The position numbers were made by a program. A stretch of 49,096 nt of DNA from the IMG/VR virus record IMGVR_UViG_2541047773_000006. One strand, written 5' to 3'. Shown piece by piece: positions 12,001 to 15,000 of the stretch; the stretch's first letter is position 1, and every line of letters begins with the position of its first letter. The DNA comes from a virus (taxonomy: Duplodnaviria; Heunggongvirae; Uroviricota; Caudoviricetes).

Positions 12001-15000
12001 GAGCATTAGTTCAGATGTGAATTGACATTTTCACGGCACAGGATTGAGCTAGCGTGGTTGTCTGCTTTGTGTCAAAAGCAGATATTACCAGATTTAGACA
12101 TCTATTCCCGATAGCCCTGCTCTGATGCTACACTCTGTGCTATTTTCATGACCCCAATAAAAATATTTATGACTATTGCTGATTTTAAACGGCCTAAATT
12201 GGAGCTCCCAAACGGGGCAAACAAACTACTACTGCACTCTTGCTGTGCTCCATGTTCCGGTGAAGTGATGGAGGCGCTTCAGGCCTCGGGAATCGACTAT
12301 ACCATCTTTTTCTACAACCCGAACATTCATCCTCAGAAAGAGTATTTAATTCGTAAGGATGAGAATATTCGCTTTGCTGAACAACACGGCGTGCCATTTA
12401 TTGATGCTGATTACGACACAGACAACTGGTTTGAACGTGCCAAAGGAATGGAATGGGAGCCCGAGAGGGGGATCCGTTGTACCATGTGTTTTGACATGCG
12501 TTTTGAGCGGACAGCGCTGTACGCTGCTGAAAATGGTTTCAGTGTGATCAGCAGTTCACTGGGCATTTCACGCTGGAAAAATATGCAGCAGGTTAACGAC
12601 TGTGGGCGGCGAGCCGTCGCGCATTATCCGGGCATGGTGTACTGGGATTATAACTGGCGCAAGCAGGGCGGCTCGTCCCGCATGATTGAAATCAGCAAGC
12701 GCGAAAAATTCTATCAGCAGGAATATTGTGGCTGTGTGTATTCTCTGCGCGATACCAATCTACACCGCAAATCTCAGGGACGCCCTCTTATCAAAATTGG
12801 TCAACTCCACTACGGTAAAGAAGAGAAGGAGTGATTTTATGGAGCACCTTTCTTATTGATTTCATATTGGCGAGGTAGCGGGAGTTAAGTAAAATTGCTG
12901 CGGGTGCTTGAGGCTATCTGCCTCAGGCATGAACACCAAAAGGCAGATAGAGAAAAGCCCCAGTTAACATTACGCGTCCTGCAAGACGCTTAACATTAAT
13001 CTGAGGCTCAATCTATGCTGAACACATGTAGGTTAGCCTCTTACGTGCCGAAAGGCAAGGAGAAGCAGGCTATGAAGCAGCAAAAGGCGATGTTAATCGC
13101 CCTGATCGTCATCTGTTTAACCGTCATAGTGACGGCACTGGTAACGAGGAAAGACCTCTGCGAGGTACGAATCCGAACCGGGCAGACGGAGGTCGCTGTC
13201 TTCACAGCTTACGAACCTGAGGAGTAAGAGACCGGGCGAGGGAGAAATCCCTCGCCACCTCTGATGTATTATGCATCCTCAACGCACCCACACTTAACCA
13301 GTTTTGGCGAGTTTATTTTATCTGTAAATATTTTTATAAAAATAATGCCCACGCACAGCATAAAACAAAAAGTATTACAGATAAAAAAGGAGCGTAATGT
13401 GCAGATTTGTTGTTTTCCATATTTACTCACCTTAATATGATTGATCTTGATAGGATTGTTATTTCAGTGGTTTTCAAATGAGATATTATGGTGATCTGGT
13501 AGATTTTCATAACATTAAAATTTAATTTGTTTAACCGCTTTTAATAATAAGCGTTGTTTTTATCCCGGCAATCTGTTGTTTGGTTTTTATTCCATTAAGG
13601 TGGGGACTTTACACTGGAGCCAGTTTATTTATACTTCATACGTCAGCCTGAACAACTGGCATCTGCTGCACTGCGCCATCGAGAGATTGAGAAATGGCGC
13701 ATATACAACTGGTCAAACAAACTTCTTCTGGTTTACTTCTCCCGGCGACGCCGGAGAGTTGCGATTTTCTGCATCAAATCAAAATAGGTGAGTGGATACA
13801 CGCAGACTTTAAGCGTGTGCGTAACTACGCATTCCACAAGCGTTTTTTCAAACTCCTGCAACTGGGATTCGATTACTGGACTCCGGTCGGTGGGGCGATC
13901 ACACCTCGCGAACGAGAAATGGTGTTCGGCTTCGTTGATTACCTGTGTGAATCAGTAGGCAGGGAACATACGCCAGCTCTGAGTGATGCCGCGGAACAAT
14001 ATCTGAATACCGTTGCGACACGCAGAACCCGGGATATGGCATTGCTCAAATCATTTGACGCTTTCCGCGAGTGGGTAACCATTCAGGCCGGATTTTACAC
14101 CGAGCATTTTTATCCTGATGGTAGTCGTGGGCGTCGGGCGAAATCCATCGCGTTTGCGAATATGGACGAAACCGAGTTTCAGCAGGTTTATAAATCTGTA
14201 CTGAATGTGCTGTGGAACTGGATTCTGTTCCGTAAATTTTCCTCTCCGGAACAAGTCGAAAATGTGGCCGCGCAGCTACTGGAGTTTGCGTAATGGTGGA
14301 TTTACGTAAAGCGGCGCGGGGCCAGATGTGCCAGGTCAGAATCCCTGGCTACTGCAATCACAATCCCGAAACGTCTGTGCTGGCGCATTACCGACTGGCG
14401 GGAACGTGCGGAACAGCGATAAAGCCACACGATATGCAGGCAGCGATTGCCTGTAGCTCGTGCCACGATTTAATCGACGGGCGGGTAAAAACCAGCGATT
14501 ACACCAAAGAAGAATTACGCCTGATGCATGCAGAAGGTGTTTTTCGCACGCAAGAAATCTGGAGAAAGGAAGGTTATTTATGATTTACCCAACAAATACA
14601 GGCAAAAGCGGGGAACACCTTCGTCTCACCACGCTGGAAAGTGTCTGGATTCAGGGAAAACTGCGCATGTGGGGGCGCTGGTCGTATATTGGCGGCGGTA
14701 AGACGGGGAATATGTTTAACCAGTTGCTGGCGTCAAAAAAATTGACGAAAACAGCCATCAATGAAGCCCTGCGCAGAATGAAAAAAGCGGGAATAGAGAA
14801 AGCTGAGCTGGAAGCGTTTTTGCGAGAGATGATCAACGGCAAGCAAAAGAGCTGGCTGGCGCATTGTACTGATGCAGAGGCACTAAAAATTGATAGTGTT
14901 ATAGGTGAAGTTCTGGCGGATCATCCAGGACTACTAAATGTCCTGAGTCAGCGTTATGTGGGGCGAGGGATGAGTAAGAGAAGGATGGCCGAGTTATTAA

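Follow-up and report, generated by a model that had tools for sequence, protein, structure and literature searches.

Layout of the hok/mok/sok locus

From position 12867 to about 13320, the analysed window, a 49,096-nucleotide stretch of viral DNA, very probably carries a complete type I toxin-antitoxin module (hok/mok/sok, HokD/HokW type) on a Rac-like lambdoid prophage. The module lies in the early-right (nin-like) region of this prophage, which is integrated beside ttcA and is apparently complete, from int through the tail fibres. E. coli 042 carries a sequence 100% identical to the window, and its annotation names the gene hokD, within a prophage that also extends from int to the tail fibres. 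The locus is already known: it belongs to the best-studied type I toxin-antitoxin family, it has an experimentally characterised close relative, and the name hokD is in RefSeq.

The product of the toxin gene matches the Pfam profile PF01848 (HOK_GEF) over its full length (82.9 bits, E = 1.2e-23) and is 100% conserved in at least 80 phage contigs; the RefSeq label of the ORF is 'type I toxin-antitoxin system toxin HokD'. The leader matches Rfam RF01794 at 12902-13077 of the plus strand with 119.6 bits against a gathering score of 59, and the match covers the complete model (1-157). A sequence-only reading had proposed a type I toxin locus of the hok family, with leader structure and a Hok-like ORF of 51 amino acids, and the Pfam, Rfam and RefSeq assignments bear out both the locus and the ORF. 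The span of 12835-13262 that it gave is, however, too narrow, as the predicted mRNA would start near 12902 and reach 13290 or further, and its 5' end pairs with 13277-13289, past 13262.

The features of the locus are listed in Table 1. The 5' end of the mRNA was placed where the RF01794 model begins, and other hok loci are homologous up to approximately 13300-13318. The 3' end, at or after 13290, is uncertain because the terminator is weak. The -10 hexamer of the candidate hok promoter aligns with TAGAAT, TATAAT and TATGAT in phage Rac, K-12 hokC and the R1-type locus. Its -35 hexamer falls outside the conserved module, and the homology to Sakai hokW begins at 12882.

Table 1. Features of the hok/mok/sok locus, with positions in the window
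Feature	Position	Strand	Description
Candidate hok mRNA promoter	12867..12895	+	TTGGCG-17 nt-TAAAAT; 9 of 12 consensus matches; predicted transcription start
Full-length hok (mok-hok) mRNA	12902..13300	+	Approximately 390-400 nt; predicted 5' end 12902/12903
tac (translational activator element)	12902..12913	+	GGGUGCUUGAGG; three alternative, mutually exclusive pairings: with fbi, with ucb and with the metastable partner
5' metastable hairpin	12905..12929 (12905-12914 / 12920-12929)	+	UGCUUGAGGC / GCCUCAGGCA; 10 bp, 5-nt loop
Core leader stem (body of the tac-stem)	12914-12923 / 12941-12950	+	9-10 bp; 92.9% paired; 3 pairs changed on both sides
Predicted Sok antisense RNA	12947..13023	-	Approximately 71-77 nt; spans mok SD and AUG; ends by homology
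ucb (upstream complementary box, anti-SD)	12955..12963	+	AAGCCCCAG; closed form: paired to the mok SD region; open form: paired to tac
mok Shine-Dalgarno (SD)	13003..13007	+	GAGGC, 8 nt 5' of the mok AUG; invariant in 37/37 sequences
mok-like reading frame	13015..13227	+	70 codons in the hok frame: 19 leader codons, MLNTCRLASYVPKGKEKQA, then Hok
Sok promoter by homology	13030..13058	-	-35 TTGCCT (13058-13053), 17-nt spacer, -10 TAACCT (13035-13030)
dcb (downstream complementary box)	13035..13040	+	AGCCUC; open-form partner of the mok SD region 13003-13008 (Sok-target hairpin)
Small UGCC-GAAA-GGCA hairpin	13046..13057	+	Just 5' of the hok SD; its minus strand holds the Sok -35
hok toxin gene	13072-13227	+	51 aa; SD AAGGAG 13057-13062; 100% identical to K-12 HokD (RelF)
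3' GAAA-tetraloop hairpin	13235-13243 / 13248-13256	+	9 bp; -19.9 kcal/mol, z = -4.3
fbi (fold-back inhibitory element)	13277..13289	+	CCUCAACGCACCC; duplex with tac of 12 bp and one bulge, -21.5 kcal/mol
Degenerate intrinsic terminator	13298..13320	+	CCAGUUUUGGCGAG plus U-rich run, -3.0 kcal/mol

The mok frame opens at AUG 13015 and stays open through the hok start, the two AUGs being 57 nt apart, and translational coupling is predicted. The earlier assignment of this frame to that of hok is therefore right (57 nt, 70 aa). Its description as unlike the classical arrangement holds relative to plasmid R1 (58 nt) but not as an unusual trait, since K-12 mokC/hokC, Sakai hokW and most loci are in frame. 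A spacing of 57 nt is found in 32 of 42 species-level loci and in 66 of 80 phage loci, and the 19 mok leader codons are identical in Sakai orf74. In R1 numbering, the mok AUG occupies 116-118 and the hok AUG 174-176, 58 nt apart and out of frame (PMC9841398). This frame rests on the mutation numbering of that study, with T117/G118 in the mok start, G176 in the hok start, T315A as Y48N and A169G as Mok E18E. The window has 57 nt in frame instead of the R1-type 58 nt with a long overlap in the other frame. An in-frame spacing of 57 nt also occurs in one R1-type IncFII plasmid copy, so that the mok-hok spacing varies even among plasmid copies. A literature search for explicit statements about an in-frame mokC found nothing useful.

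Close relatives toggle among 56, 57 and 58 nt by 1-nt indels while keeping the same 19 leader codons, and a 1-nt indel in the small hairpin at 13046..13057 sets the mok frame (57 vs 58 nt). Within the clade of identical Hok proteins these three junction geometries interchange naturally. The 56-nt geometry has a leader of 19 codons that closes with an AUGA stop/start overlap and the 58-nt geometry has a long overlap out of frame; in the 57-nt geometry, ribosomes starting at mok would yield a Hok lengthened at its N-terminus to 70 aa. Whatever the frame, all loci keep the hok SD AAGGAG and the hok AUG.

Folding and covariation of the mRNA

The 399-nt RNA from 12902 to 13300 has a minimum free energy (MFE) of -157.8 kcal/mol (z = -7.5). 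This fold holds 12 of 12 tac/fbi pairs and 7 of 7 ucb/SDmok pairs at P of about 0.95 (0.96 for ucb/SDmok). Among 38 mRNAs, this closed form is 87.5% paired, compared to 39-48% when slid; 10 pairs have changed on both sides, and none of 500 shuffles scored as high. A tac/fbi duplex of -17 to -26 kcal/mol, located 45-52 nt past the hok stop, is present in nearly all of the 40-odd loci and co-varies (UA 23 / CG 10), as does an A-U/G-C pair of ucb/SDmok (23/14). The covariation at tac position 4 is coupled to both fbi and the metastable partner.

The 5' metastable hairpin is 96.2% paired over 37 sequences, compared to 31-51% when slid, with its position 4 co-varying (UA 25 / CG 10), and it is the MFE structure of nascent RNAs of up to 49 nt. 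The 9-bp leader stem noted previously is perfect, with CTATCTGCC at 12914-12922 pairing to GGCAGATAG at 12942-12950, and is extended to 10 bp by U12923-A12941. The 59-nt leader fold has an energy of -23.5 kcal/mol (z = -3.7), matched by none of 200 shuffles. The GAGGC/GCCTC pairing (12910-12914 / 12920-12924) that the sequence-only reading saw nested in this stem does exist, but it is an alternative, not a nested element, because it shares bases with the 9-bp stem, with which it competes as the metastable hairpin. It is noted that a second GAGGC/GCCUC pair is present at 13003-13007 / 13036-13040.

In the open form, tac/ucb is 98.5% paired and the SD/dcb pairing is invariant; the SD/dcb hairpin at 13003-13040 (-15.5 kcal/mol, z = -3.3) is part of the Rfam consensus structure. 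The open form is the MFE structure of 5' fragments of 61-144 nt. When the whole RNA was truncated at its 3' end and folded at equilibrium, the closed form was favoured by 4.1 kcal/mol, with an R1-type control likewise closed (+1.5); across relatives, this closed/open difference of the truncated RNA ranges from -5.6 to +4.1 kcal/mol.

The 3' GAAA-tetraloop hairpin, previously placed at 13237..13256 and found here with a slightly shifted boundary, is 93-97% paired with compensatory changes. By analogy with R1 (PMC9841398), it is expected to protect the 3' end of the mRNA after processing to the translatable form. The sole atypical feature of the locus is the weakened terminator after fbi. In relatives, this terminator consists of CCCGCUUCGGCGGG and a U run, with -11.8 to -15 kcal/mol. 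The canonical form is found in 65 of 80 phage loci, and the allele of the window, weakened by three substitutions, in one of the 80. Hence the 3' end and the kinetics of tac/fbi closure may differ in this locus.

The predicted Sok antisense RNA

Sok is not visible by eye, as the sequence-only reading had stated, but it can be located through homology to K-12 sokC and to sokW. Its coordinates were transferred from the annotated K-12 sokC (59 nt, 5' end at mokC nt 9), and the two 5' ends are identical (GUUCAGCAUA...). The predicted RNA has a single-stranded 5' tail, GUUCAGCAU..., followed by a long hairpin and then GGGGCUUUUCUCUAU, and has a terminator-like hairpin with a U run. The long hairpin is the complement of 12963-13001 together with the outer ucb/SD stem. 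The RNA folds with -31.9 kcal/mol and has an apical insertion of 18 nt compared to K-12 sokC. The Sakai hokW-sokW locus is nearly identical over the Sok region, and its sokW, complementary to the hokW leader over 71 nt, is an antitoxin by experiment (PMC8621323).

The Sok promoter has a 17-nt spacer in all 38 aligned loci, in which the -35 hexamer is TTGCCT, TTGACC or TTGCGC and the -10 hexamer mostly TAAYCT/TATCCT. Both hexamers are identical in Sakai hokW-sokW, where mutations of the sokW promoter abolish antitoxicity (PMC8621323). The Sok promoter escaped a consensus promoter scan, because its weak -10, TAACCT, matches only 3 of 6 positions. The Rfam search over both strands that had been suggested as a check passes on the plus strand and gives only 19.2 bits on the minus strand, because the 'sok' model spans the hok leader in sense orientation. 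In a permissive Rfam scan of both strands, the extra matches (ceN48, Phe_leader and mir-7360) were at chance level, far under their gathering scores.

Relation to known systems and proposed function

The hokW-sokW locus of Sakai prophage 5 (Stx2 phage VT2-Sakai, E. coli O157:H7) has approximately 94% nucleotide identity to the window over 12882-13300. The leader is nearly identical, and tac, fbi, the 19 mok leader codons and the in-frame 70-codon ORF are the same. Each locus belongs to a lambdoid prophage, with the replication genes on one side of it and the late-gene regulator region on the other. They differ in the Hok C-terminus (…VFTAYEPEE here, …VFVDYESEK in HokW), in the host phage (Rac-like at ttcA here, an Stx phage for hokW-sokW), in the flanking genes, with a QueH gene that ends at 12834 lying upstream here, and in the post-fbi terminator, which is weaker in the window. 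The toxin, the antitoxin RNA, the dependence on RNase III and Hfq and the role in phage release have been demonstrated for hokW-sokW (PMC8621323).

The Hok protein is identical to that of the K-12 Qin hokD (relF), and the homology begins at the hok SD (13058) and takes in the 3' hairpin, fbi and the terminator; a DUF1367 (ydfU-like) gene lies downstream in both. In K-12, however, the end of relE replaces the whole leader (tac, ucb, mok start and sok), giving a relBE-hokD arrangement in which only the part from the hok SD onwards is kept. As judged from its sequence, the window has the full regulatory module and is identical to HokD in protein only; the RefSeq name hokD therefore refers to the protein, not to the architecture of the locus.

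The hok/sok (parB) system of plasmid R1 matches this locus in the set and order of its elements (tac, metastable hairpin, ucb, mok SD, dcb, hok SD, 3' hairpin, fbi and Sok), has a Sok promoter of the TTGCGC-17-TATCCT type and likewise an mRNA of about 400 nt. The Hok protein here differs substantially from R1 Hok, to which HokW, its close relative, is 44% identical (PMC8621323). The extra sequence is at the tac-stem apex in R1 and in the 18-nt insertion at the apex of the Sok/target hairpin here, and R1 hok/sok is a plasmid maintenance system whereas the present locus is prophage-borne. Hok toxicity, its neutralisation by Sok and slow 3' processing of the mRNA have been shown for R1 (PMC9841398) and for hokW-sokW (PMC8621323). 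In the E. coli chromosomal hokC/mokC/sokC (gef) locus, mok is in frame and mokC and hokC share a stop codon. Its tac and Sok 5' end are identical to those in the window, but in K-12 the leader is shorter (150 vs 170 nt here), the homology is lost after the 3' hairpin, beside IS186, fbi is missing, and the locus is chromosomal and non-prophage.

The transcript ends, 3' processing, refolding step, toxicity and biological role that we infer for the E. coli 042 strain follow the R1 paradigm. The plus strand would give a stable mRNA of approximately 390-400 nt, in which tac would be held in the local metastable hairpin during transcription. In the finished RNA, tac would pair with fbi and ucb would sequester the mok SD, and this closed RNA would allow neither translation nor Sok binding. 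Slow 3' trimming to the GAAA hairpin would take off fbi, upon which tac could pair with ucb and the mok SD could shift into the SD/dcb target hairpin. Ribosomes on the 19 mok leader codons would then open the hok start region, so that the membrane toxin Hok is made. The short-lived Sok would pair over the mok SD and AUG and the duplex would be cut by RNase III, preventing Hok synthesis; Hok would therefore be made only once Sok synthesis stops. By analogy with hokW-sokW, this may occur on prophage induction, where Hok would help lysis and phage release, and Sok synthesis could also stop on loss of the element.

It should be mentioned that hok is co-oriented with the phage early-right operon; no terminator was detected upstream of hok. 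Upon induction, readthrough transcription would meet the Sok promoter head-on, and transcriptional interference of this kind could account for the rapid RecA-dependent loss of sokW RNA that was reported in Sp5 and left unexplained. The 57-nt spacing, by placing mok in frame with hok, makes a longer Hok isoform possible, and in-frame loci (here and hokW) might make this second toxin with its own activity or localisation. That in-frame loci produce the longer isoform and that readthrough interferes with the Sok promoter on induction is, taken jointly, a doubtful proposition.

The degraded post-fbi terminator, canonical in 65 of 80 phage relatives, could mark the locus as a decaying, functionally silent relic like the five K-12 chromosomal hok loci, with its ORF kept by chance or through recent acquisition. 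K-12 hokD and hokC are demonstrably disrupted, by the relE junction in place of the leader and by the loss of hokC homology at IS186, and, as summarised in a preprint, the tested chromosomal hok loci gave no post-segregational killing (bioRxiv 10.1101/2025.08.07.668861). We nevertheless consider a relic improbable: tac, the metastable partner, ucb, the mok SD and AUG, dcb, the Sok promoter and hairpin, the hok SD, the 3' hairpin and fbi are all intact and identical or near-identical to those of the functional Sakai hokW-sokW, the host prophage looks complete, and Hok is invariant among the phage contigs.

The in-frame ORF could also be read as a mechanistically distinct variant whose real product is a 70-aa toxin starting at 13015, without classical mok-hok coupling. 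The 57-nt spacing, the annotation of the 70-codon ORF as the gene in the Sakai record, and the out-of-frame R1 arrangement derived from the PMC9841398 numbering agree with such a variant. It is made highly improbable by the conservation of the hok SD and AUG irrespective of frame, by the 1-nt toggling of the spacing among relatives that share the leader codons, and by the toxicity of the 51-aa HokW ORF alone (PMC8621323). There is next to no chance that the Rfam match represents a Sok RNA encoded on the plus strand at 12902-13077, as the name of RF01794, 'sok antitoxin', and the strand of the match might imply, since the match runs from the conserved 5' end of the hok mRNA via the mok SD and AUG to the hok AUG, i.e. 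over the sense leader, while K-12 sokC is annotated on the strand opposite hokC and the minus strand scores so low.

The complete type I module thus favoured is of small discovery value, given the known family, the RefSeq hokD annotation and the identity to a characterised prophage system. Its value lies in annotation: RefSeq marks only the toxin ORF; the mok frame is unannotated, as are the Sok RNA and the RNA elements, fbi among them, and the name hokD hides a complete regulatory module that is absent from the K-12 copy. The copy in the window is probably active. The survey of relatives indicates that the mok frame relative to hok is evolutionarily free, which accords with the published view that the translation of mok matters and its product does not.

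The cassette and its prophage setting

A Rac-like prophage carries this complete and probably functional hok/mok/sok cassette, of HokD/HokW type; neither its kind nor, in essence, its sequence is new. The sequence-only reading was correct in assigning the 51-aa ORF to the hok family (Pfam HOK_GEF, E=1.2e-23). Seven E. coli genomes, 042 among them, are 100% identical to the 566-bp query, and related sequence is present in 4731 of 5426 complete E. coli genomes. The 042 annotation names the ORF 'type I toxin-antitoxin system toxin HokD' and marks no other part of the module (mok, sok or RNA elements). 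The 042 locus lies within a Rac-like lambdoid prophage adjoining ttcA, in the order intR, xisR, ralR, recT/recE, kilR, sieB, repressors, ydaU/ydaV, queH and hok, followed by DUF1367/DUF1364/DUF1133, two tRNAs, lysis genes, trkG, terminase, and head and tail genes.

Other genes of the element were also noted. The QueH gene (epoxyqueuosine reductase, Pfam E=1.9e-65; 12148-12834) stands immediately 5' of hok, and phage-borne queH is a tRNA-modification gene, prophage cargo of the early-right operon. The RalA antitoxin sRNA (1557-1735; Rfam RF02694, 219.4 bits) adjoins what the 042 annotation names as the toxin gene ralR, RalA/ralR being a second type I toxin-antitoxin system of the same prophage. 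The DUF1133 gene is separated from the lysis cassette by two tandem tRNA genes, 15479-15551 and 15558-15629, which in 042 are given as tRNA-Thr and tRNA-Gly; Stx-type lambdoid phages have the like arrangement. Directly past the tail-fibre genes, the sitABCD iron/manganese transporter operon is found at the right end of the element (~46000-49096; E. coli 042 1580324-1583773).

Window Hok and K-12 HokD share 100% identity. Homology to K-12 hokD starts only at 13058, the hok Shine-Dalgarno (SD) sequence, because the end of relE stands in place of the entire leader; the window therefore has a complete module that K-12 hokD is without, K-12 keeping an orphan fbi. Decay is also seen among other copies with identical or similar HokD: the tac box is mutated in one (L007, E. 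coli CP178302.1 1947710-1949062), and in two more (L008 and L029) the leader is replaced by a K-12-like relE junction. The hokW-sokW locus of Sakai Sp5 (phage VT2-Sakai) is the closest relative to have been characterised, ~94% identical across 12882-13300, with an almost identical leader, the same Sok promoter hexamers and the same in-frame ORF of 70 codons, which there bears the annotation 'gef homolog; orf74'.

Features of the hok/mok/sok locus
Feature	Coordinates	Strand	Detail
hok toxin gene	13072-13227	+	51 aa, Hok/Gef; ORF list
mok-like frame	from ATG 13015	+	70 codons; in frame with hok, starts 57 nt apart
tac	12902-12913	+	mRNA box
Metastable hairpin	12905-12914 / 12920-12929	+	10 bp; includes GAGGC 12910-12914 / GCCTC 12920-12924
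ucb	12955-12963	+	mRNA box
SDmok	13003-13007	+	GAGGC
dcb	13035-13040	+	mRNA box
fbi	13277-13289	+	mRNA box
Predicted Sok	13023 to 12947	-	~77 nt; transferred from K-12 sokC
Putative Sok promoter	-35 TTGCCT 13058-13053; TAACCT 13035-13030	-	17-nt spacer; homology

Closed and open forms of the mRNA

In the minimum-free-energy fold of 12902-13300, the first 12 nt, GGGUGCUUGAGG, pair with CCUCAACGCACCC in a tac/fbi duplex of 12 bp plus one bulge (-21.5 kcal/mol). This closure is the defining trait of hok mRNAs (summarised in PMC9841398). The extent of 12835-13262 proposed earlier is too narrow for the unit, as the 5' end pairs with 13277-13289. An equivalent duplex occurs 45-52 nt past the hok stop in almost all of ~40 loci from Escherichia, Shigella, Kluyvera, Photorhabdus, Pantoea and Citrobacter.

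Covariation was evaluated in an alignment of 38 whole hok mRNAs. The closed conformer (tac/fbi, core stem, ucb/SDmok and 3' hairpin) is 87.5% paired, versus 39-48% when the partners are slid, and ten pairs show changes on both sides; the observed values were reached by none of 500 shuffles. At position 4 of tac, which is U or C, there is covariation with the fbi partner (UA 23, CG 10) and also with the base opposite in the metastable hairpin (UA 25, CG 10). A single tac base thus stays complementary to two partners that exclude each other. The open-form pairings are invariant, with tac/ucb 98.5% paired and SDmok/dcb (GAGGC/GCCUC) present in 37 of 37. Predicted folds run from the metastable hairpin in nascent RNAs up to 49 nt, through the open form in 5' fragments of 61-144 nt, to the closed form in the full-length RNA (P ~0.95). 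For the 3'-truncated RNA the closed form is favoured by 4.1 kcal/mol, but the calculation fails as well for an R1-type control (+1.5) and spans -5.6 to +4.1 in relatives, so that it does not count against opening of the truncated RNA.

The local hairpins recorded by the sequence-only reading are largely borne out. The 9-bp stem (12914-12922 / 12942-12950) is perfect and extendable to 10 bp. The GAAA hairpin exists, but its arms are 13235-13243 / 13248-13256 rather than lying within 13237..13256. The GAGGC/GCCTC pairing is present, yet it is not nested in the 9-bp stem, with which it competes because the two overlap. Against shuffled controls, z was -3.7 for the 9-bp-stem hairpin, -4.3 for the GAAA hairpin and -7.5 for the whole RNA, and no shuffle was as good.

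The antisense RNA and the mok frame

A covariance-model search, the check suggested in that reading, gave a plus-strand match to Rfam RF01794 ('sok') at 12902-13077 (119.6 bits; gathering score 59), whereas the minus strand gave 19.2 bits only. Because the match extends from the conserved hok mRNA 5' end, across the mok SD and AUG, to the hok AUG, RF01794 describes the sense hok leader; the antisense RNA lies within it on the opposite strand, as seen from the K-12 annotation, which puts sokC opposite hokC. Although not identifiable by eye, Sok can be placed by homology: the K-12 annotation gives sokC a length of 59 nt and a 5' end at mokC nucleotide 9, and the ten bases with which sokC starts (GUUCAGCAUA) recur unchanged on the window's minus strand, read from 13023. 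The fold of the predicted Sok (-31.9 kcal/mol) leaves the 5' tail single-stranded, followed by a long hairpin and GGGGCUUUUCUCUAU; compared with sokC it has an apical insertion of 18 nt, which is common to 14 of 37 aligned loci. The C12960·A13004 mismatch of the sense ucb/SD helix becomes a G·U pair in Sok. A 17-nt spacer separates the Sok promoter hexamers in each of the 38 sequences, and the R1-type locus has TTGCGC-17-TATCCT at the matching place.

The in-frame mok had been contrasted with the classical arrangement. For plasmid R1 the contrast is right, because the mutation numbering (mok start T117/G118, hok start G176, T315A = Hok Y48N, A169G = Mok E18E; PMC9841398) implies 58-nt spacing and an out-of-frame 70-aa Mok. 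Elsewhere the in-frame arrangement is the standard one: spacing is 57 nt in 32 of 42 species-level loci, 58 in 8 and 56 in 2, and among 80 phage contigs with identical HokD it is 57 nt in 66 and 56 nt in 11, two having the K-12 relE junction. The 56-nt class would end a 19-codon leader in an AUGA stop/start overlap. K-12 mokC and hokC have a common stop codon and so are in frame, as is mok in hokW. The supposed oddity is the majority state of the clade. In the phage Rac record (MN652886) mok is annotated 58 nt away and out of frame, the difference from the window being one additional T; it falls within the small UGCC-GAAA-GGCA hairpin (13046-13057), where the Sok -35 lies too. An R1-type copy on an IncFII plasmid (L002, NZ_CP128973.1, 444-659) has a mok AUG that precedes hok by 57 nt in the same frame (71 aa), and its Hok is identical to the 52-aa R1 Hok sequence used as query. 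Its 57 nt versus the published 58 points to a 1-nt polymorphism or sequence discrepancy among R1-type plasmid loci.

Transcript ends, induction and the Tyr47 codon

The window's atypical feature is the terminator after fbi. Relatives carry an intrinsic terminator there that consists of CCCGCUUCGGCGGG and a run of U, has an energy of -11.8 to -15 kcal/mol and occurs in 65 of 80 phage loci, whereas the window (13298-13320) has three substitutions, CCAGUUUUGGCGAG, at -3.0 kcal/mol, an allele found in 1 of 80 phage loci. With this terminator weakened and the next plus-strand terminator-like site at 13536-13553, transcripts of the window allele may therefore be 3'-extended.

Enrichment of hok genes in prophages is known (bioRxiv 10.1101/2025.08.07.668861). 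HokW is toxic and is counteracted by sokW, 71 nt complementary to the leader, partly via RNase III and Hfq; after mitomycin C, sokW disappears in a RecA-dependent manner and HokW builds up in the inner membrane, and hokW-sokW deletion halves phage release (PMC8621323). In the window, hok is co-oriented with the early-right operon (12700-13100, both strands), and the terminator scan gave no terminator-like site between queH and hok. Read-through upon induction would run head-on into the Sok promoter, a possible cause of the sokW RNA loss that PMC8621323 describes upon induction.

The Tyr47 codon UAC (13210-13212) of hok lies within CAGC-UUACGAA-CCUG (13205-13219), in a 7-nt loop similar to the tRNA-Arg(ACG) anticodon loop; the 3-bp stem beneath this loop shows covariation between loci (CAG/CUG, CGG/CCG, UGG/CCA). 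The site matches the TadA A-to-I editing (Tyr to Cys) sites reported for hokB/C/D/E (bioRxiv 10.1101/2025.08.07.668861). Editing at Tyr47 would give the toxin a second Cys, a partner for Cys30.
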